In this document: one piece after another, positions 1,591-50,087 of the stretch
How positions within the stretch are numbered: position 1 is the first letter of the stretch
Layout of the letters: each line of letters begins with the position of its first letter
Sequence record: PV636258.1
Strand: one strand, 5' to 3'
From: a phage
Length of the DNA stretch: 64,000 nt
Made by a program: the position numbers and the translations under genes
Notes under the pieces: model-generated
Database searches by the model: none
What the model saw: the letters and a program-made list of their open reading frames with translations, nothing else
Told to the model about the DNA's origin: nothing

Positions 1591-2181
1591 TTATTTCTTC
1601 AGATCAGGCCACGCACCAGAGGTCGCAGTAGACCCAGCTGGGGGAGCAGACTCAAGATCGGGAGAACCCGACTGAGTAACAACAGTGGGATCTTTGTTAA
1701 CCACTTTGACCCCAAACTGCTTGAGAGCATCCACAGCTTGCGCCTTCCGGCTGTTGCTTTTGTAATGGTTATACCCCTTGATACCGAATGATGCACTAAT
1801 TGCTGTCAATAACGAATAGGTATACCATTCAGGTGCGGTATCGAGCGCCTGGAGGCCGCCGATTACTGCTTTGATGAAATCCCCTTTATGATACTCATCA
1901 GGGAACAGAATTAGTTCCACAACCGGAGCAGTCATGACGAGGATAGCGGGTACGGCCAACACGATAGTCCAGAATTCGTCTTTCCAAGACCCGCCGACTT
2001 CGGTGATCTTAGACAGCTCCCAATCTGAGGAGGACTTGATAGCCTCTAGCTTGACATCGTGTTTTGCCTGAACAACTTCCCGCTTGTATTGGATCAAATC
2101 AGTCCCGAGGTTCCAGAGTTGCTTTAGCGCCCCTGGGATAATACTCACAAAGGGGATTGCCATAATAAACTCCTTGGTCAT
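1591..2181 (-). CDS. hypothetical membrane protein (single predicted TM)
   Basis: ORF 1591-2223 trimmed to ATG at 2181 with GAGGAA RBS; hydrophobic segment FWTIVLAVPAILVMTAPVV. Confidence 0.45.
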   Translation of the reverse strand: MTKEFIMAIPFVSIIPGALKQLWNLGTDLIQYKREVVQAKHDVKLEAIKSSSDWELSKITEVGGSWKDEFWTIVLAVPAILVMTAPVVELILFPDEYHKGDFIKAVIGGLQALDTAPEWYTYSLLTAISASFGIKGYNHYKSNSRKAQAVDALKQFGVKVVNKDPTVVTQSGSPDLESAPPAGSTATSGAWPDLKK

Positions 2182-2242
2182 TGAACGTTCCTCGGCTAAA
2201 TTACGGGGACGTGCTAACGGCACGGTTAACCGGAGACAAACA

Positions 2243-5239
2243 ATGACTGTTTTCTATACGAACGTTGCCCGACAGGGTAACGACCTTCTGATTCGTATTG
2301 CAGACGACAACGGCAATCGCCGTATGTTGCGTAAGAAATTCGAACCCACCTTGTATTTACCCACAGCCGATTATTCCAAAGTTGAAAAGATTGGCCTCCT
2401 CAATGAACCGTTGGTGTCTAAAAAATTTGCGTCAATGCGTGACGCCGACAACTATCTGGAGGAATATAAGGAGGTCGAAGGCGCTGCCGTTTACGGACAA
2501 ACGGATTATGCATATCAATTCATAGCGCATAGTTTTCCTGGGATGATTACCCCCGATTACTCAAATATTCACATCGCCAACGTGGATATCGAAGTTTTCT
2601 CGGCTGGGTGGCGCGATGGAGAAATGACTAAAGGCCCATTTCCTCACGCGACGATTGAATCCCACACGTTTAAGGGGAGTGAGGCGCGTGTTCGCCGATT
2701 CCATAAGCAAGTGTTGGCCAACCATGATTTCGTTCGAGAGCATTTCCCAGGTTCCTTTATTTCCAACAACGTGACTGACCAGTTCCCTATCATTGATAGT
2801 AATGGTAAGATCACACAGAACATGAATGCCGCCTTCCCTATTACGCTCATCCAGCTTCAAGACATGAACACCAACAAGTTCTATGTCTGGGGTATGCCGT
2901 GTTCTAAGGATCGCCATAAATTCAAATATGATCCAAATGATGAAGAGATAGGTGGTCTTGAGGTTGAATACAAAGAATACACGACTGAACAAGAACTTCT
3001 TCGCGCCTTCTTAGATTATTGGTCTGAACGTCAATTTGATGGTTGGACTGGCTGGAACATCGAAACGTTTGATAGCCCGTACTTGGTTGAACGTATTACG
3101 CAGGTTCTCGGCGAAACCCAGGCAGAGCGCCTCAGTCCTTGGGGCAAACTCAAGAAACGTTTCATCAAAGACCGTAAAGGCGACGTGACTTCTTATCAAT
3201 TCGTGGGTTGTCCTATGATGGACTACATGCAAGTTTACAAGAAACACACGTACACAACCCGCGAAAAATACTCACTGGATTGGATCGCTTATTGTGAACT
3301 CGGTGAGAAGAAGTTGGATTATAGTGAAAGCAAGTCATTGTATGATCTATATTTTAATGATTATTGCAAACACACCCGATATGGTATCAAAGACGTCAAA
3401 CTCGTGTGGCGTTTAGAACAAAAGCTGCGTTTGATACAGCTGATGTTCGTATTGGCGTATCGCACCAAATCTAACTATGAAGACGGTCTTGGGACTGTAG
3501 CACCATGGCTGGCGATGTGTTACTATCGTCTTTATGAAAAGGGGATTGTCCCTAAAATACAGCGTGTATATGATGGTCCAACAGACTTTGAAGGCGCATA
3601 TGTCATGGAGGTTGCACCAGGGATATATTTCTGGGTATTCTCTGAGGACTTAAACTCCCTGTATCCCCACATCATACAGCAATACAACCTTGGTCCTGAG
3701 ACTATCGTTTCTGACAAGCACACACGTCGCGATATCATTGAGTCCATGTGTGAAGAATTGACCAAAGCGATGAATGATATGACAACGCCTATGAACAAGC
3801 GCCGTCATCTCAAAAATCTTCACGACAAGCTGCAGCGTGCTATTGATGAACGCATACAAGTTGTTGATGAATTGGTCGCGCTGGGTGAATTCCATTTTGA
3901 AACATTACGTCGATATAACGTTTCGTTTACCCCGAACGTTCAATTCTTCAGTAATGAGAAGATGTCTTTCCTTTCCGAAATTATGCGAGGCATATACGCT
4001 GACCGTAAAGGAGAGAAAGCAACTGGCCTGAAGTATGAGCAATGGGCTGGTTGGTGTAAGGAAATGTCTAAAGGTGATTTCCACCTTGAATCCGCCATGA
4101 AGTCTCGTTTCTACGATCCTGAATGGTATGAAGAACACAAGCATATCGACCTTGATCACCTGACTGAAGTCATGCATAAGTGGGAAGATTTGGGAGTTGC
4201 CCAAGATACGTTACAACAAGGTCTGAAGATCTTGATGAACGCAGGATATGGTGCAATTTCTAACGTCTGGTTTAAAGAATACTTCAACATCAACATCGCT
4301 GAAGCAATTACCACTTCCGGCCAGCTGATCAATAAATGGAACAAACGCCACACTGATGATTATCTGAACAAACTTTGTGGCACCACTGGTCAGGATTTTG
4401 TTATCGCAGGTGATACAGACTCCAATTATATTTGCATTGAACGCCTGGTCAAGCAATTGTGGCCTGAAGAAAAGGACCATCACAAACTCGTTGATAACAT
4501 TGACCAATGGATCAAAGAGAATTACCAGCCAAAAACCAGTGAATGGGCGCAGTTGTTGTGTAATACCATGAACGGGTTTGAGCAGCGCATGGTCTGGGAA
4601 CGTGAGGTCATCGCATCGTCTGCTGTATGGCGAGCCAAGAAGATGTATTGCATGGCAGTATACGATAGCGAAGGCATCAAGTATGAGAAGCCAAAGATCA
4701 AATTCAAAGGTTTGGAAGCGCGTAAATCAACCACTCCTGAGTGGTGTCGTGAGCGTCTGGTTAAATGTTATGAGAAAGTCCTGCTCGGTACTGAGGCAGA
4801 GGTTCAGGAATTAATCGCTGGATACAAAAAGGAATATATGGAACTCACCGTGGATGATATCGCTCAGGCATCTGGTGTGAGCGATATTGAGAAGTGGTTA
4901 GACGCGAACGGGAATTACATCAGCGGTACGCACTTTGCTGCCAAGGCTTGTATTATGTACAACAAGCTGATCGATAAGCACGAAGATCTCGGTCTTCCCC
5001 CTATCGAATCTGGCGATAAGGTTAAAATCATCAACCTGAAACCTGGCAATCCTGTGGGGAATGATCGCATAGCCTTCCCTGACTTCCTTCCTCCAGAATT
5101 GGGATTGGATAAATGGGTGGATTACCACACCACGTTTGAAAAGACCTTTATAGAGCCAATTCAGTCTATCTTGGATGTGGTTGGTTGGTCTCATAAACGT
5201 CGAGTTAATCTGTTGTCCATGATGGGCAAGAAAGGTTGA
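2243..5239 (+). CDS. 43: DNA polymerase, family B (T4 gp43-like)
   Basis: ORF 2084-5239 trimmed to ATG 2243 (GGAG 7 nt upstream); exonuclease and polymerase motifs incl. YPHIIQQYNLGPETIV (motif A region), NAGYGAIS (KxxxNSxYG-like), IAGDTDSNYI (motif C YGDTDS). Confidence 0.93.
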   Translation: MTVFYTNVARQGNDLLIRIADDNGNRRMLRKKFEPTLYLPTADYSKVEKIGLLNEPLVSKKFASMRDADNYLEEYKEVEGAAVYGQTDYAYQFIAHSFPGMITPDYSNIHIANVDIEVFSAGWRDGEMTKGPFPHATIESHTFKGSEARVRRFHKQVLANHDFVREHFPGSFISNNVTDQFPIIDSNGKITQNMNAAFPITLIQLQDMNTNKFYVWGMPCSKDRHKFKYDPNDEEIGGLEVEYKEYTTEQELLRAFLDYWSERQFDGWTGWNIETFDSPYLVERITQVLGETQAERLSPWGKLKKRFIKDRKGDVTSYQFVGCPMMDYMQVYKKHTYTTREKYSLDWIAYCELGEKKLDYSESKSLYDLYFNDYCKHTRYGIKDVKLVWRLEQKLRLIQLMFVLAYRTKSNYEDGLGTVAPWLAMCYYRLYEKGIVPKIQRVYDGPTDFEGAYVMEVAPGIYFWVFSEDLNSLYPHIIQQYNLGPETIVSDKHTRRDIIESMCEELTKAMNDMTTPMNKRRHLKNLHDKLQRAIDERIQVVDELVALGEFHFETLRRYNVSFTPNVQFFSNEKMSFLSEIMRGIYADRKGEKATGLKYEQWAGWCKEMSKGDFHLESAMKSRFYDPEWYEEHKHIDLDHLTEVMHKWEDLGVAQDTLQQGLKILMNAGYGAISNVWFKEYFNINIAEAITTSGQLINKWNKRHTDDYLNKLCGTTGQDFVIAGDTDSNYICIERLVKQLWPEEKDHHKLVDNIDQWIKENYQPKTSEWAQLLCNTMNGFEQRMVWEREVIASSAVWRAKKMYCMAVYDSEGIKYEKPKIKFKGLEARKSTTPEWCRERLVKCYEKVLLGTEAEVQELIAGYKKEYMELTVDDIAQASGVSDIEKWLDANGNYISGTHFAAKACIMYNKLIDKHEDLGLPPIESGDKVKIINLKPGNPVGNDRIAFPDFLPPELGLDKWVDYHTTFEKTFIEPIQSILDVVGWSHKRRVNLLSMMGKKG

Positions 5240-5299: not shown

Positions 5300-5644
5300 A
5301 TGAAACTCAATAAGATTCTTCTGGTGTGTGCTCTGGCTTTCTCTACCACTGCATGCTCTACCCTTCTGGACGTTGCGTCTACTGTTGACCTCGATGCGCC
5401 GACGTTCACCAATCAGCAAGCGGTGAATAAGATGGAAGACACCATCAAGGCACATGCTGCGTTGGATAACACCACTCCTGGTCCGTTGCAAACTGTTTGC
5501 AATTATGACGATTCCATCCAGGAAGATGAAACCTATCACTGTACCACTTACGTGAAGGAATCTTCTGTGGTTCTGTATGCAGATTGCACAGAAGAGCAAT
5601 GCACCGCAACTGGTTATGATCAAGTGGAGAAGTCTGATGAATAA
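5300..5644 (+). CDS. small secreted/lipoprotein-like protein
   Basis: ATG at 5300; N-terminal signal-peptide-like MKLNKILLVCALAFSTTAC; several Cys in mature part. Confidence 0.45.
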   Translation: MKLNKILLVCALAFSTTACSTLLDVASTVDLDAPTFTNQQAVNKMEDTIKAHAALDNTTPGPLQTVCNYDDSIQEDETYHCTTYVKESSVVLYADCTEEQCTATGYDQVEKSDE

Positions 5645-6419
5645 TCATGTTGGTCTGTATGATGCCAATTCTAAAATCGGTGGAATGTATCGTATCCTGG
5701 TAGACGTAGACTTGACTTTGGTTGATAGCCTCTCCCCTTGGGTGGATTGGTTTAATATTTCCAATTCAAAAGCTGCTGCTGAAAACATGGGTTGTCATGA
5801 TTATCCCAATGATTTCCAGCGTATCACCAAAGAGTGCTATATGGCTCATGCTGGTGATTTGGCGATCCTCATGCGGGAACGCGCTCACCCAGCATGGTTG
5901 ACACGCCGTGTGTTTGTTGCTGGTCAATGGATGGATTCACCTACAGGACGTGATCCTATGGATTGGTGGCGCATGCCGGACCTGTATGCCAAGATGAACC
6001 CGCTTCCAGGCGCTTACGAGTTCCTGGTGAATCTGAAGAAGATCCTACTCGAAGACTTTGAAAATGTTGAATTGATCGCAGTATCTAAGTGTGAGCCAGA
6101 ACACGAGCGCAGCAAGCGCCAGTTTGTCTATGACAAGTTCCCTGGCATCTTCAACGGGTTTGTCAGCACCGACGAAAAGCATCTTTTGGCAGGTGATGTT
6201 TTAATTGATGATAACCCGAAATACGTTGAACCCTGTGCGATGAACAATATTTTTGTCATCTTTGTTCCTCAGGGAAATTATGAAAAACTGGATCTTTCGA
6301 ACTCGGAAGATATGCTTTATATTAAACCAGTAGAAGGCCAGAACCACTTCGACTTCCTGAACCGCAATATTGTCGAAGTGGTGAACCGCCTGATTGGCCA
6401 TTATCAATACGTCCATTGA
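5637..6419 (+). CDS. HAD-superfamily hydrolase (nucleotidase/phosphatase-like)
   Basis: Start ATG 5637 overlapping upstream stop; HAD motif I ILVDVDLTLVDS (DxDxT) and C-terminal VLIDDNP aspartate motif. Confidence 0.6.
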   Translation: MNNHVGLYDANSKIGGMYRILVDVDLTLVDSLSPWVDWFNISNSKAAAENMGCHDYPNDFQRITKECYMAHAGDLAILMRERAHPAWLTRRVFVAGQWMDSPTGRDPMDWWRMPDLYAKMNPLPGAYEFLVNLKKILLEDFENVELIAVSKCEPEHERSKRQFVYDKFPGIFNGFVSTDEKHLLAGDVLIDDNPKYVEPCAMNNIFVIFVPQGNYEKLDLSNSEDMLYIKPVEGQNHFDFLNRNIVEVVNRLIGHYQYVH

Positions 6420-6429
6420 GGAGGACATC

Positions 6430-6735
6430 GTGCAAGAACAATCTAAGTTTGGGGAAACCCCAGACAAGCGTTCCGGTGATAGCGATATGGATGGCGTTAT
6501 TATCCATGTGAACAACTTCATTCGTAAACAAACCACACCCACTTCCGTTGGTGCGGCGCTGGAATTAAAGCGTGTTCTGATAGAAAACGGTATGGCACCA
6601 GATGACGATGAAATTTTCTATAACTTCGACGACCAGTATAAAGTGAAGTTTGAAGAGAATGGCCGCCCACAGGTTGCTGTTTTCTGGTCTCCCTGGTTGG
6701 GCGGTGTGAGCTGGCGTATTGAGGAAGATGCATAA
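6430..6735 (+). CDS. hypothetical protein
   Basis: ORF 6394-6735; GTG at 6430 preceded by GAGGAGG at 5-nt spacing chosen as start. Confidence 0.4.
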   Translation: MQEQSKFGETPDKRSGDSDMDGVIIHVNNFIRKQTTPTSVGAALELKRVLIENGMAPDDDEIFYNFDDQYKVKFEENGRPQVAVFWSPWLGGVSWRIEEDA

Positions 6736-7640
6736 TGGCTAAAATAATTGTAGTGAAAGGCACCTCGGCCACGGGCAAGGGTACGAGAGTAGTCCAGTTC
6801 ATCGAATGGCTCCGAACTAAGCTGGAGCCTACTGAACTCACCTACACCATTGGTGACAAGACGCGCCCATTCGGCCTGAAGTTCGAAGAGCTGAAGTTAA
6901 TCTTCGTTGGCCAGTATACTGTGTCCAACAAATCCGGCCTGGCTTCCTGGACTTCCATGGACGCCATCCACGCCGCCACAGGCTCGGGTGATATCGCCCG
7001 TGATCTGGTCAAAGGCTGGCTGGCTCAGGGTTACACTTTGGTGTGCGAGGGTGAACCCCTCATGCTATCGGATAAATGGCGTCCTGAATGGATGTTCAAG
7101 AACTATCCGATTGAATCTCTGGCGTTGCTTTATTTTGCATACCCAGACCGCTATCAGTATGATGCACGCATCCGTGGTCGCTCTGGTAAGGAAGCAGGGG
7201 ACTCCGGCTGGTCACGCAACGAATCTTACTCCAAGGAGTTTGAGAAGTCGAAGACTGAAATGCTGGTGCTGGGTTGGGAAGTGGTGGTCAATGACTACAG
7301 CGGGCAAGACGTGTTGTACCGTCAATCGCCTACAAACACTCAAGAATTCAAAACAGGAAATGATAGCGAATTAGCCATGATGCCGTTTGATGCACCTTTA
7401 TGGGTGATTGGCAACGCTATTCATCATCAAATGCGTGGTGAGTTTCACGCCATGGGTCTGGACATCAAAGATTTCTACGGATTCTGTGAAACTGACCCAA
7501 TGACGCGTGAAGTCGGTGGGGATGATCCTCTAGCGCATCGAGTCCCTGAGAAGGCGACCAAATCTAAAACCAAGGCGAGCGCCAAGGGAGAGGTAACAAA
7601 GTCCTCTGTATCCCTTCTCGGCCTGTTGAGTAAGGGTTAG
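6735..7640 (+). CDS. P-loop NTPase / kinase-like protein
   Basis: ATG overlaps upstream stop (TAATG); Walker A-like KIIVVKGTSATGKGT near N-terminus; no further assignable motifs. Confidence 0.55.
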   Translation: MAKIIVVKGTSATGKGTRVVQFIEWLRTKLEPTELTYTIGDKTRPFGLKFEELKLIFVGQYTVSNKSGLASWTSMDAIHAATGSGDIARDLVKGWLAQGYTLVCEGEPLMLSDKWRPEWMFKNYPIESLALLYFAYPDRYQYDARIRGRSGKEAGDSGWSRNESYSKEFEKSKTEMLVLGWEVVVNDYSGQDVLYRQSPTNTQEFKTGNDSELAMMPFDAPLWVIGNAIHHQMRGEFHAMGLDIKDFYGFCETDPMTREVGGDDPLAHRVPEKATKSKTKASAKGEVTKSSVSLLGLLSKG

Positions 7641-7847: not shown

Positions 7848-8198
7848 ATGAAAATCCTCATTCCACGCAACGTTGTCGCTGTTGCTATTGATTACCGTGG
7901 TGATGCGAAGATGATTAACGCTGTCCGTTATTATCCGGAACAGAATAAAATCGTCCCACAATTTCAACTGAATACCAATCCTTCTTCTAAGGATTTCGGT
8001 TCTTGGCGTCAGGTGGGTTTGGCTCGTACCCAGGTCAATGCCCAGCATTTTATTTCCGAAAAGACGAAAACCGCCAAGCAAATTTGGTTGGTGACGAATG
8101 ATCGTCGTTTCCTGCCTATCTGGTCTCTGGGACAGCCCGTAGTAAGCCCCGAAGATATCCAACTCGAAGCCGAGGTGAAGGATGACGCATCTGTCTAA
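7848..8198 (+). CDS. hypothetical protein
   Basis: 116-aa ORF tightly packed between neighbours. Confidence 0.4.
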   Translation: MKILIPRNVVAVAIDYRGDAKMINAVRYYPEQNKIVPQFQLNTNPSSKDFGSWRQVGLARTQVNAQHFISEKTKTAKQIWLVTNDRRFLPIWSLGQPVVSPEDIQLEAEVKDDASV

Positions 8199-9423
8199 AA
8201 TGCCGCAGGGATATAAAGCCCCTGAAAAATGGAAATACCCGATTGATCTGGCAGTAGATTATCGTAAGCCAGAAAATCGCATGTACCTGCTCAAGGCATG
8301 GGTGGAGGCGCTATCCTACACTGAAGAGCATAACCAGCAAGTCCGTCTGATGGATTATGCCATCGAGGTTACAGAAGGCATCACACAGCTCGAAAAGATC
8401 GAGCGCAAGATTTGGATGGCCTTTTTGTGGGGGTGTTGCTATAATGGGATTGGACCATGGACAATTTACAGTGAATTTCCTGTACCCCCACAATCTCCGA
8501 AAGAGTTTCAGCGATTTTCTGATTGGTATAACCTGAATTTTGATCGTATGCGCTTCGATACAGATTGTCGTTATCGTAAGTCGAAAATGATTCCGTGCGT
8601 TCAGTCCTATATCGATTGGTTGGGTGGTAAAACCCAAATGGATTCTTTTCGTTGGATGTTGGAATGCACTACCAAGGAAGACCAGTTCACCGAACTGTGG
8701 AATACGGCGATGTCATGGAAATACTTCGGTCGCCTGAGCGCATGGAACTTCCTGGAAGCCCTGAACATGGTCTTCGGTAACATATGGGATATAGACGTCC
8801 CTGGGTTCATGTTGCGTGACCGTGATGGTAGCGAATCCAATCGTAACGGCGCGGCGTTCTTATCCAACCGTGATGATTGGGTGACCAAGCACGGGAAGAA
8901 AAAGATCAACGGTTGTCCTATTACAGACGAAGAATGTGATATACTCGAAACCGACCTTGAGAAAGCGTTTCAGGAATGCGTTGAAGAGTTTGGCCACATC
9001 ACGTTTATCAATCGTCTGAACTTTGAGACCTCCGGTGCTTGTTGGTTGAAGAAATTCTTCCGACTGAAGAATACCCGTTACATCGGGTGGGACGCCGAGC
9101 GTACATGGGACGAGATCGATTATATGGAACGTATTTGGCCTGAATACTCCTGTGCACCTCTCTGGGAAGCCCGTTCACTCTGGCTACCAGATACCCTGTT
9201 ATGTGAGAAGGCTCCTGCAGGGCACGTTCCAGGCGTCCAGAAGTGGAAGATGCCCGTGTTCTTTGAGACGGGTGTTCCTCTACATATCTGGCATTTACAG
9301 CAGGGTACACGTTGGGAACCGTCTGAGGTTTGTTTGTCAGTTGGTAAATTGGACACCATGAGCCGAAATGGTACTGTGTATCCTTCTAAAAGTGTGAACC
9401 TCATGACACTCTTGAAACGCTGA
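8182..9423 (+). CDS. hypothetical protein (413 aa, Trp/Cys-rich)
   Basis: Long ORF with no motif I can assign; overlaps upstream gene end by 17 nt. Confidence 0.5.
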   Translation: MTHLSKMPQGYKAPEKWKYPIDLAVDYRKPENRMYLLKAWVEALSYTEEHNQQVRLMDYAIEVTEGITQLEKIERKIWMAFLWGCCYNGIGPWTIYSEFPVPPQSPKEFQRFSDWYNLNFDRMRFDTDCRYRKSKMIPCVQSYIDWLGGKTQMDSFRWMLECTTKEDQFTELWNTAMSWKYFGRLSAWNFLEALNMVFGNIWDIDVPGFMLRDRDGSESNRNGAAFLSNRDDWVTKHGKKKINGCPITDEECDILETDLEKAFQECVEEFGHITFINRLNFETSGACWLKKFFRLKNTRYIGWDAERTWDEIDYMERIWPEYSCAPLWEARSLWLPDTLLCEKAPAGHVPGVQKWKMPVFFETGVPLHIWHLQQGTRWEPSEVCLSVGKLDTMSRNGTVYPSKSVNLMTLLKR

Positions 9424-9640: not shown

Positions 9641-9695
9641 CGTTCTTCAATAAAGGGGAATGGGTTATTATTAGCCCGTTCCCCTTTCTTTTTGC
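9641..9695 (+). terminator. intrinsic terminator-like hairpin of the recurrent TTCAATAAA family
   Basis: GTTCTTCAATAAA then AAAGGGGAATGGG / CCCGTTCCCCTTT stem with TTATTATT loop, followed by CTTTTT. Confidence 0.5.
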
Positions 9696-11627: not shown

Positions 11628-12197
11628 ATGTCACAACGTAAAGGTATTTCAATTGGTTGGATCGTTGGGTTGGCAATTCTAGCATTTGCTGTAATTGGGA
11701 TTGGCAGTGTGGTTAGCTATTTCAATGACTTCAACCGCATTGAACAACAGGTCAAAAAGTTCAACAAAGATTCTGAAAACCACCTGAGCAATTATACGCT
11801 CAAAGTTCAGGAGACGGCGCAGATTCCTGACATGTACAAAAACGGTTTGAAGGAAGTGATCAAAGATACTTTCCAAGGCCGTTATGGCGCAGACGGTTCC
11901 AAAGCAGTAATGCAATGGATTCAGGAACAGAATATTCAGTTTGATTCATCTTTGTACAAAGAGATTCAGGTTGTTATCAGCTCAGGTCGGGATGAATTCC
12001 GCATTAGCCAAACTAAAAAATTGGACGCATGTGCGATCTATGAAACTAAACTTGGCCAGTTCCCTGGTTCTCTGATAGCAGGAATCTTTGGATATCCGCG
12101 TATCGATCTTGACAAGACATGTCAGGTGGTGAGTGACACCCGTACCCAGGCCGCATTTGACTCCGGTGTCCAGACTCCGATTAACTTCAAAGGCTGA
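11628..12197 (+). CDS. LemA-like membrane protein
   Basis: N-terminal TM (GWIVGLAILAFAVIGIGSVV) followed by LemA-like YFNDFNRIEQQV region. Confidence 0.45.
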   Translation: MSQRKGISIGWIVGLAILAFAVIGIGSVVSYFNDFNRIEQQVKKFNKDSENHLSNYTLKVQETAQIPDMYKNGLKEVIKDTFQGRYGADGSKAVMQWIQEQNIQFDSSLYKEIQVVISSGRDEFRISQTKKLDACAIYETKLGQFPGSLIAGIFGYPRIDLDKTCQVVSDTRTQAAFDSGVQTPINFKG

Positions 12198-29670: not shown

Positions 29671-29967
29671 ATGAAAGAGCAAGAAATTATCCGGCATTGT
29701 ATTCGCTTAGGAACATTAAAACCTCTCTATCAGGCTTTGCGTTTCAATGCCATTAAATTCAAACCTTTACCAAGAACTATCGCAACGTTCTTTGCCATGC
29801 GTTCTGTTGGAAAAACGATTTTCTTTGAGCATGACATTTATTTTTATACAAAGATTAATGGCGAAGATTTAGATAAAATGATTTTCGTGAACGACGATAA
29901 AAATATGAAGATAAAGGTGGAAAACGAATTGCGCAGGATAAATGATTCTTTAAGAGGAATATTTTAA
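29671..29967 (+). CDS. hypothetical protein
   Basis: 98-aa ORF; stop overlaps start of PP-loop gene (TAATG). Confidence 0.4.
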   Translation: MKEQEIIRHCIRLGTLKPLYQALRFNAIKFKPLPRTIATFFAMRSVGKTIFFEHDIYFYTKINGEDLDKMIFVNDDKNMKIKVENELRRINDSLRGIF

Positions 29968-30629
29968 TGGAAATTGTTGTCTCAATATCTGATTGTGATT
30001 TTGTATACCGTGTTCTTCAAGGGGATGCTCCATTGCCGGAGAATAATCAAGAAGTGACGTTGTTCTGGTCTGGTGGGGTGGATAGCACATACATGTTGAT
30101 TTGGTTGTTATCGAAAGGATATTCAGTTCATACTGTGTATTGCCACCTCGAAAATAATAAATTTAAATCTAAGCGCGAAAATTGGGCGAGGAATAAAATA
30201 TACAACTGGATTAATAAAAATGCCCCACTTCTCATGTATCGTTGGACACATCATCAAGAGCCTATCAGTAGCATCAACGTCCCGAACGGTGGTTTTCGCG
30301 CTTGTTTAGCACAAGCCCCGATATGGTTATTAAACACGCAATTTAAAGGCAGTGGCTTGCCGTCCACGTATATCTTGGCATATGTTAACGGCGATGACGC
30401 AATACACTGGATACCCGCCTTTAATAAAGTTATTGAAGGATACAACATGATGACCAGAGACGGGGAAAGACCTATTGAAATTTTATATCCATTGATTAGT
30501 CTCAAGAAATCTTGGTTCTATCATCACATGTCCCCAATACATGACTTAATGACATGGTGTGAATTGCCAATTTTGAAAAAGAATTGTGATTGCCCTGCCT
30601 GTGTTCGACATCGCCATGAGTTATCATAG
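29967..30629 (+). CDS. PP-loop ATP pyrophosphatase, QueC-like
   Basis: SGGVDST PP-loop signature; C-terminal Cys cluster CELPILKKNCDCPAC with QueC-like spacing; about 220 aa like QueC. Confidence 0.6.
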   Translation: MEIVVSISDCDFVYRVLQGDAPLPENNQEVTLFWSGGVDSTYMLIWLLSKGYSVHTVYCHLENNKFKSKRENWARNKIYNWINKNAPLLMYRWTHHQEPISSINVPNGGFRACLAQAPIWLLNTQFKGSGLPSTYILAYVNGDDAIHWIPAFNKVIEGYNMMTRDGERPIEILYPLISLKKSWFYHHMSPIHDLMTWCELPILKKNCDCPACVRHRHELS

Positions 30630-48481: not shown

Positions 48482-49047
48482 TTCCGATCCCTATAAAATT
48501 TGACGAACGGTTGCCAACCTTCAAACGGATTGACAAATTCATAATCAACTTCCATCTTATCAATGAAAGCCTCAATGTCATCCTCTATGATACCACCGCG
48601 ATCCGCCTTTGAAATGCGGGTGATGGGACATTTAGTGCTCAGCGCCCATTCATATTCCTGAGGGGTGCGCAAATCACTCACGATATAATGAACGTGTGGG
48701 TTCTGTTCCACCAAAGGAAGTTGATATCGTTTAAAGAATGACAGAAACAGGTCTGGTTGTACGTAACGCAAGCCCGTATCGCTGCCGAGATGAAGCCAGA
48801 TCTGCCGTGGAGTTAATCCCTTGGGGTTATCAGGGTGAACATATGGCAAGTCCTTGATGTCGTCCTCTACTTCCTCTGGCAACCAAGGATAGATGTAATG
48901 AGCCACCCGACGCAACTCGTCTGAGAAAGATAAGCGCTGGATGTCCATATCACCCTGTAAATGGTGAAAGCTGATGAGGGACTCCAAACAGAAGTCCTTG
49001 CCGGAGCGCTTGCGCCCCGTAAAGAATTCCAGATTAGGGTATTTCAT
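48478..49047 (-). CDS. 1: deoxynucleoside monophosphate kinase (gp1-like)
   Basis: P-loop FFTGRKRSGKDF resembles T4 gp1 FLSGVKRSGKDT; ATG at 49047 overlaps upstream stop (ATGA). Confidence 0.7.
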   Translation of the reverse strand: MKYPNLEFFTGRKRSGKDFCLESLISFHHLQGDMDIQRLSFSDELRRVAHYIYPWLPEEVEDDIKDLPYVHPDNPKGLTPRQIWLHLGSDTGLRYVQPDLFLSFFKRYQLPLVEQNPHVHYIVSDLRTPQEYEWALSTKCPITRISKADRGGIIEDDIEAFIDKMEVDYEFVNPFEGWQPFVKFYRDRK

Positions 49048-50087
49048 TCCCCATACCCCCACATGTGTTTACGGTCAACGGGTGATTGTAACAACGCATT
49101 ACGAAGACCATCATCAGCAATCCGACGTTTATCAATTTTAGTATCATTAAGGCGACACCACAGACAATATGACATATCCATCATCAAACCTGTATCTGCG
49201 TTATATTCCTTCAAATGCTCTCTGATTTTACCAAATTCACTGCCAATGTCACAGTGATGAAGTACACCGAGGAACAGATTTTGGATGTTTTCTTGACATT
49301 TCACCTTTTCCGAAGAGAATTCCAACAAAGAATTGTACATACCAGTAGAAGTTCGGGTCTTGTTGGTTATGTTCCCGAGTTGCTTCCGACTGACTTCGTT
49401 GTTGTAATAGTGAAGGTTATTCGAGAACAGTTTATAATTCCCGACTTCCACGTTCAACACCTTCGCCAATACTTCCTGCAAAATGGAGAATTCAATGAAG
49501 TTGATTGAACTCATACCCCAGAGGACATCCTGACTTCGATTGATGACCGTGATGTTCAACCGCCCTTCTGTTATACTGAACAATAAAGCCAGATTACAGA
49601 TCATGTCTTTAGTCTTGGCTTCTCCTGTTTCACTATGCGCGGCCAAACTTTCATCTGAGTCCAGAGCTGGATCATAGATGGTGAGATACGCCTGACGGGT
49701 GTTGGGGTTATTGCGCAAACGGTTGATGACACTATTCAGCTGGCCATAGTTGTACAGGCGTGGTCCGTAAGCACCACGCCACGTTACGCCATCATCCGAG
49801 AAGTTGACCGCACGAGGGAGGACTCGGGAAAGGAAACGGATGTCATTGCGGCCTGACAGAACCCAGAATGTTTCACCAATCGCAGCAAGCGCAGATGAAT
49901 TACGACCTTCAACAGATAACCAACGATCTCGAGGGTCAGCCACCGTAATCGTCACGCCATCAATAAAACGAGTGCCGTCAGTGTTAATCTCTGCGTTGCC
50001 AGGATCTGACTCAATCCCGTGTTCACGGATAGCCAACACAGCTTTCTTCAGCATATCATTATTGTTTAAAGCAAAAATCTCCATCAA
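49044..50087 (-). CDS. thymidylate synthase-family enzyme, divergent (candidate deoxypyrimidylate hydroxymethylase)
   Basis: TS-fold motif series: GAYGPRLYNYGQ, NNPNTRQAYLTIYDP, Cys in DMICNLALLF, NRSQDV, SSINF (Asn at uracil-specifying position), SNNLHYY; 347 aa with C-terminal extension. Confidence 0.8.
   Translation of the reverse strand: MMEIFALNNNDMLKKAVLAIREHGIESDPGNAEINTDGTRFIDGVTITVADPRDRWLSVEGRNSSALAAIGETFWVLSGRNDIRFLSRVLPRAVNFSDDGVTWRGAYGPRLYNYGQLNSVINRLRNNPNTRQAYLTIYDPALDSDESLAAHSETGEAKTKDMICNLALLFSITEGRLNITVINRSQDVLWGMSSINFIEFSILQEVLAKVLNVEVGNYKLFSNNLHYYNNEVSRKQLGNITNKTRTSTGMYNSLLEFSSEKVKCQENIQNLFLGVLHHCDIGSEFGKIREHLKEYNADTGLMMDMSYCLWCRLNDTKIDKRRIADDGLRNALLQSPVDRKHMWGYGE

Follow-up and report, generated by a model that had tools for sequence, protein, structure and literature searches.

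A serine:DNA transferase gene, very probably of the 5-NeOmdU thymidine hypermodification pathway, in a CBA120/ViI-like Kuttervirus

The 64,000-nucleotide stretch of phage DNA analysed here (sequence record PV636258.1; hereafter the window) carries at positions 8182..9423 of its plus strand a gene whose 413-residue product is, with high confidence, an amino acid:DNA transferase (AADT), namely the serine:DNA transferase of the pathway that leads to the hypermodified thymidine 5-(2-aminoethoxy)methyl-deoxyuridine (5-NeOmdU). This hypermodified thymine is thought to shield the phage genome from host nucleases. A preliminary description made from the sequence alone had placed a 413-residue protein at these positions, as is confirmed by its ATG-initiated open reading frame (ORF) and translation, and had treated it as an orphan without any assignable motif which, by elimination, might be the transferase missing downstream of a thymidylate synthase-like enzyme and a kinase. 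The guess about its role is supported by a syntenic, 87% identical counterpart that has been purified and assayed, gp247 of Salmonella phage ViI. That description is wrong only in calling the protein unassigned or novel: it is of an already characterised enzyme type, for which the family, the activity and the crystal structure of a relative have all been published.

The family assignment is straightforward. A Pfam scan of the protein gave a single strong match, to PF18724 (E=1.9e-57; 195.1 bits, where the gathering cut-off is 26.2), covering residues 49-292 and profile positions 2-228 of 232. Pfam labels this family 'ADDT, amino acid:DNA transferase', and it corresponds to what was formerly clade 2 of the aGPT-Pplase proteins. 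PF18724 was also found in every one of the 61 homologous protein clusters collected for the protein, as well as in gp46 of phage PaMx11, the relative with a known structure. The 6-kb region around the gene is matched in 278 phage records, nearly all of them from Ackermannviridae (Kuttervirus and relatives), and this conservation, together with the 61 clusters, shows that the gene is genuine and not a chance ORF.

The closest relatives indicate orthology. The 6-kb stretch is 98.6% identical at the nucleotide level to Escherichia phage CBA120, and the window is thus that of a CBA120/ViI-like Kuttervirus. Its protein is identical to CBA120 orf248 (gp193, YP_004957896) at 411 of 413 positions and can be aligned over its full length with ViI (Vi01) gp247 (YP_004327568). 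In the ViI record the order of genes is the same as in the window: polymerase, NT5C-like gene, small ORF, the kinase gene gp243, gp244, gp245 and gp247. The two proteins further resemble each other in length (411 residues in ViI), in the ETSGACW motif and in Pfam family. They differ by substitutions at 13% of positions, found mostly in two places, residues 146-180 and the variable, disordered tail at the C-terminus (385-405), where there is also a net indel of two residues; these changes are not expected to alter function. The CBA120 protein differs only at residues 2 and 4 (MTHLS versus MIHIS). CBA120 also has an extra segment of ~216 bp directly upstream, holding a small 'membrane protein' ORF, orf247 (L001:8216-8401 in the compared record), between orf245 and the AADT gene; this segment is absent from both the window and ViI, in which the upstream ORF directly overlaps the AADT start, and the first four residues of AADT differ accordingly.

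The 5-NeOmdU pathway of ViI was identified by Lee et al. (PMC5889632; PMC8989533). Two ViI proteins, gp67 and gp243, are kinases acting on 5-hydroxymethyl-deoxyuridine (5-hmdU) in DNA, gp247 is the clade-2 aGPT-Pplase that was renamed amino acid:DNA transferase, and gp226 is a decarboxylase dependent on pyridoxal phosphate (PLP) (PMC8989533). Purified gp247, supplied with L-serine, turned the 5-phosphomethyl-deoxyuridine (5-PmdU) of DNA into O-serinylthymidine (O-SerT); isotope-labelled serine shifted the mass of the product, a synthetic N-linked standard served to exclude an N-linkage, and changing either the conserved Cys or the neighbouring Glu to Ala abolished activity (PMC8989533). O-serinylthymidine is the precursor of 5-NeOmdU, and virion DNA of both CBA120 and ViI was found to hold this 301-Da nucleoside in place of ~40% of T (PMC5889632; PMC8989533 for the precursor). 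Given that the window protein is 99% identical to that of CBA120 and 87% to that of ViI, we infer that it would have the same activity as gp247.

The residues required for this activity are in place. The Glu/Cys motif essential to the AADT family (of the E-T-x-x-C type) is present in the window protein as E282-T283-S-G-A-C287-W288, encoded at 9025..9045 (+) by codons that read ETSGACW, with Glu as the general acid and metal ligand and Cys as the nucleophile. In an alignment of 41 homologues with identities down to 40%, E282 and T283 are invariant, as are W288, K290 and K291, while C287 is kept in 40 of the 41. One metagenomic homologue, P0036, has Gly where the catalytic Cys is expected (ETI-FGW); it may have lost activity, may reflect an error in sequencing or may use another nucleophile. 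The block D126-T-D128-C129-R130-Y-R132-K133 (8557..8580, +; codons reading DTDCRYRK) is likewise invariant among the 41 homologues. Profile-profile alignment with hhalign places, at low probability, Y131-R132 opposite W96-R97 of PaMx11 gp46, and by its position this block may be the counterpart of the Arg-rich loop of gp46 for DNA binding and the phosphate pocket.

The predicted fold agrees with this assignment. A confident AlphaFold2 model, built from a 41-sequence alignment that left out the ViI sequence, has a mean predicted local distance difference test score (pLDDT) of 91 and a predicted template modelling score (pTM) of 0.88; it is essentially all-alpha, with disorder confined to residues 393-405, and shows the all-alpha two-helix-bundle fold of gp46 (8Z2M). 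When the viral predicted-structure library BFVD was searched, every significant match that carried a name was an 'Amino acid:DNA transferase domain-containing protein'. The hhalign alignment with gp46 (E=0.023, low probability) is collinear across the FG, FM[FL]xD and ET..C motifs, and in it the window residues E282-T283..C287 fall on E243-T244..C247 of gp46. In the crystal structure of gp46, E243 and T244 bind the metal and contact O4 of the flipped-out base, which is clamped by C247, the residue proposed to attack C6 (PMC11472151).

Several observations weigh on the other side. The experiments concern relatives of the protein, ViI gp247 and PaMx11 gp46. A Foldseek search of the AlphaFold2 model against the PDB returned nothing significant, and against PDB sequences both phmmer and a profile of 42 sequences found only chance matches (a chloride channel, Rab-26); the link to the gp46 structure is therefore out of reach of these sequence searches, and even in the direct hhalign comparison the probability was only ~2%. 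The Kuttervirus clade has one residue inserted between Glu-Thr and Cys (ETSGAC, where gp46 and most homologues have ETxxC, the latter continuing as ETxxCW); the active ViI gp247, however, has the same extra residue. The gp46 ligands of glycine, W146 and K150, are seemingly replaced by L185 and N189, again by hhalign with low confidence, and D24 of gp46 lies outside the region that the low-probability alignment covers. Differing amino-acid-binding residues are to be expected, because the substrates differ (the hydroxyl of serine as against the amine of glycine), yet W146 and K150, being seemingly not kept, do not account for selectivity for the serine hydroxyl. Nor does the window alone hold the full pathway: a tblastn search of the window for the PLP-dependent decarboxylase, ViI gp226, gave no match, and by synteny its orthologue would be located just upstream of the window start.

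The comparison with gp46, known as PUGT or 5-PmdU glycinyltransferase (PDB 8Z2M/8Z2N), may hint at where such selectivity resides. The two proteins are only 12% identical in sequence; gp46 has 291 residues as against 413, the ViI-type enzymes being ~120 residues longer. Besides the additional residue in the catalytic motif, the low-probability profile-profile alignment suggests for the window protein an insertion with an invariant GSESNRNG block (216-223) and a conserved C-terminal extension of ~90 residues (roughly 324-392, with F360 and G364 invariant). The chemistry differs as well: glycine is joined by gp46 via the alpha-amine, forming an N-C bond, and serine by the ViI-type enzyme via the hydroxyl, forming an O-C bond. 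It is possible, although we regard it as a tentative proposal drawn from sequence comparison, that the GSESNRNG insertion, the insertion in the motif, the changes from W146 to L185 and from K150 to N189 and the C-terminal extension together lead the enzyme to choose a weak oxygen nucleophile, the hydroxyl of serine, although the alpha-amine is more reactive; the same features may also limit modification to ~40% of thymidines. The proposal is a hypothesis on the specificity of an enzyme already known and does not amount to a new system.

Since members of the AADT family differ in substrate, with M6 gp51 and PaMx11 gp46 using glycine and PhiW-14 gp109 using putrescine (PMC8989533), an enzyme of this family could in principle employ glycine, putrescine or another amine and so produce a thymidine modification unlike that of ViI. 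The divergence from gp247 at 13% of positions might be taken to favour such a change, but the changes cluster in the disordered tail and in a surface helix (146-180), every family-invariant residue is kept, and the near-identical protein of CBA120 belongs to a phage whose DNA holds the same 5-NeOmdU as ViI (PMC5889632). A nucleophile other than serine is thus very improbable. Still less likely is a role as DNA glycosylase or lyase within the helix-hairpin-helix (HhH-GPD) superfamily, by which the protein would excise the base instead of modifying it. The HhH-GPD glycosylases EndoIII, AlkA, MutY, Mag1 and AGOG have no significant sequence or Pfam match to the window protein and use other catalytic residues, and the AADT chemistry takes place at C5/C6 of the base, not at the glycosidic bond. 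Membership in that superfamily was considered and rejected, as neither an HhH-GPD profile match nor a fold likeness at the level of a glycosylase was found.

The preliminary description had itself named a structural or regulatory protein, apart from DNA modification, as the alternative that a suitable fold or presence in virions would reveal. A nearby gene (11628-12197) is indeed labelled 'virion structural protein' in related records, but the fold and the motif are those of an enzyme, and gp102, the 86% identical AADT orthologue in the Kuttervirus Sajous1, is unnamed in the main text of the paper on its virion proteome (PMC10892097). That main text, which reports one dataset from CsCl-purified Sajous1 virions, names none of gp102, gp105 and gp117. 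The structural or regulatory alternative is effectively refuted, with a negligible probability left to it, and the serine:DNA transferase is the reading that we follow below.

The start of the AADT gene lies within the preceding gene. A Shine-Dalgarno-like sequence, GAGGTGAAGG, read directly at 8172-8181 (+), abuts the ATG on its 5' side. The upstream ORF 7848-8198 runs 17 nt into the AADT gene before it stops, an arrangement that suggests that translation of the two is coupled. Of the 413 residues, 22 are Trp (5.3%) and 12 are Cys (2.9%), both well above the usual averages of proteins, so that the earlier label 'Trp/Cys-rich' is correct.

The partners expected of an AADT, a 5-hmdU DNA kinase and a thymidylate synthase-like dUMP hydroxymethyltransferase, co-occur with it within the window, and the neighbourhood that had been described beforehand (polymerase, HAD hydrolase, P-loop kinase-like protein, and a pair of thymidylate synthase-like enzyme and kinase) was recovered. 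A neighbourhood scan places the family-B DNA polymerase at 2084-5239. Three genes upstream of AADT, at 6735..7640 (+), lies 5-hmdU DNA kinase 2, the producer of 5-PmdU, which matches PF18747 (HMUD2, E=1.8e-149) and is 86% identical to its ViI orthologue gp243, whose kinase activity has been demonstrated (PMC8989533). The other pair is encoded far downstream of AADT on the minus strand: 5-hmdU DNA kinase 1 at 50084..50758 (PF18748, E=3.1e-112; 94% identical to its orthologue ViI gp67) and, at 49044..50087, the thymidylate synthase-like enzyme (PF00303, E=1.9e-15; 93% identical to the thyA-like gene of ViI), which is probably a dUMP hydroxymethyltransferase that supplies 5-hmdUMP. At ~55 bits this protein is far below every NCBIfam equivalog cut-off for thymidylate synthase (108-405), which fits a diverged dUMP hydroxymethyltransferase and not a true thymidylate synthase, despite the record label thyA/thymidylate synthase. 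Association of 5-hmdU DNA kinases (5-HMUDK) with dUMP hydroxymethyltransferases has been noted before (PMC5889632).

Taken together with the published work, these genes outline a route to 5-NeOmdU in which family membership, orthology, catalytic motif, fold and pathway context are established here, while the 5-PmdU double-stranded DNA substrate, L-serine, the O-linkage, the Cys/Glu mechanism, base flipping and the exocyclic-methylene intermediate are borrowed from the experiments on ViI gp247 and PaMx11 gp46. The thymidylate synthase-like enzyme would make 5-hmdUMP, and the polymerase would incorporate 5-hmdU into phage DNA instead of T. Both kinases would then phosphorylate a subset of the 5-hmdU in the polymer to give 5-PmdU. 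AADT is proposed to flip out the 5-PmdU, allowing Cys287 to attack C6 of the pyrimidine; departure of the phosphate, aided by Glu282, Thr283 and the metal, would leave an exocyclic methylene at C5, to which the side-chain hydroxyl of free L-serine would add with release of the Cys, yielding O-serinylthymidine. Finally, the orthologue of the PLP-dependent decarboxylase gp226, encoded outside the window, would convert O-serinylthymidine to 5-NeOmdU.

Other features of the region may be mentioned briefly. Between the polymerase and kinase 2, at 5577..6419 and in the plus-strand gene block of AADT, lies a homologue of NT5C/HAD-like 5'-deoxynucleotidases (PF06941, E=8.7e-08; a weak match to phrog_2643, 5'-3' deoxyribonucleotidase), a gene that related records start at the equivalent of ~5637; its product could conceivably act as a dTMP/dNMP phosphatase and so shift the balance of pyrimidines in favour of 5-hmdU. 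A consensus scan detected a strong terminator-like hairpin at 9652..9687 (+), with a 16-bp stem (7 GC pairs) followed by a T run, ~230 nt 3' of the AADT stop and beyond the next, small ORF; it is likely to mark the end of a polymerase-kinase-transferase transcription block. A 220-residue ORF at 29967-30629 (+) has weak Pfam matches to QueC/ThiI-like PP-loop ATPases, and its label in ViI is 'QueC-like queuosine biosynthesis'.

Public records do not reflect what is known about these enzymes. The AADT gene is labelled 'hypothetical protein' in CBA120 and Sajous1, 'putative uncharacterised protein' in ViI and again 'hypothetical protein' in many other Kuttervirus RefSeq and GenBank records. In the PHROGs scan the window protein matched phrog_3271 over its full length, an uninformative result given the label 'unknown function', while NCBIfam lacks models of AADT and of both 5-hmdU DNA kinases; this may explain the blank or misnamed public (PGAP-style) annotation. 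The kinases are misnamed in RefSeq, the gp243 type as 'guanylate kinase' and the gp67 type as 'terminase small subunit' (in ViI and PaMx11); the loci concerned in the compared records are L003:38203-38865 and L004:14218-14787. In Salmonella phage 38, AADT is split over two UniProt entries (289 and 86 residues) and several neighbouring genes are also in pieces, probably because of frameshift sequencing errors in that record.

Publications from 2018 to 2024 (PMC5889632; PMC8989533; PMC11472151) already cover the AADT family, its reaction, its catalytic residues and, for one relative, the crystal structure. The scientific gain from the present assignment is accordingly small, and its practical value lies in the correction of annotation. 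With the correct label the gene indicates that the phage of the window very probably makes 5-NeOmdU DNA, and this bears on resistance to restriction and CRISPR, on the sequencing and cloning of phages intended for therapy or biocontrol, and on the engineering of AADT enzymes.
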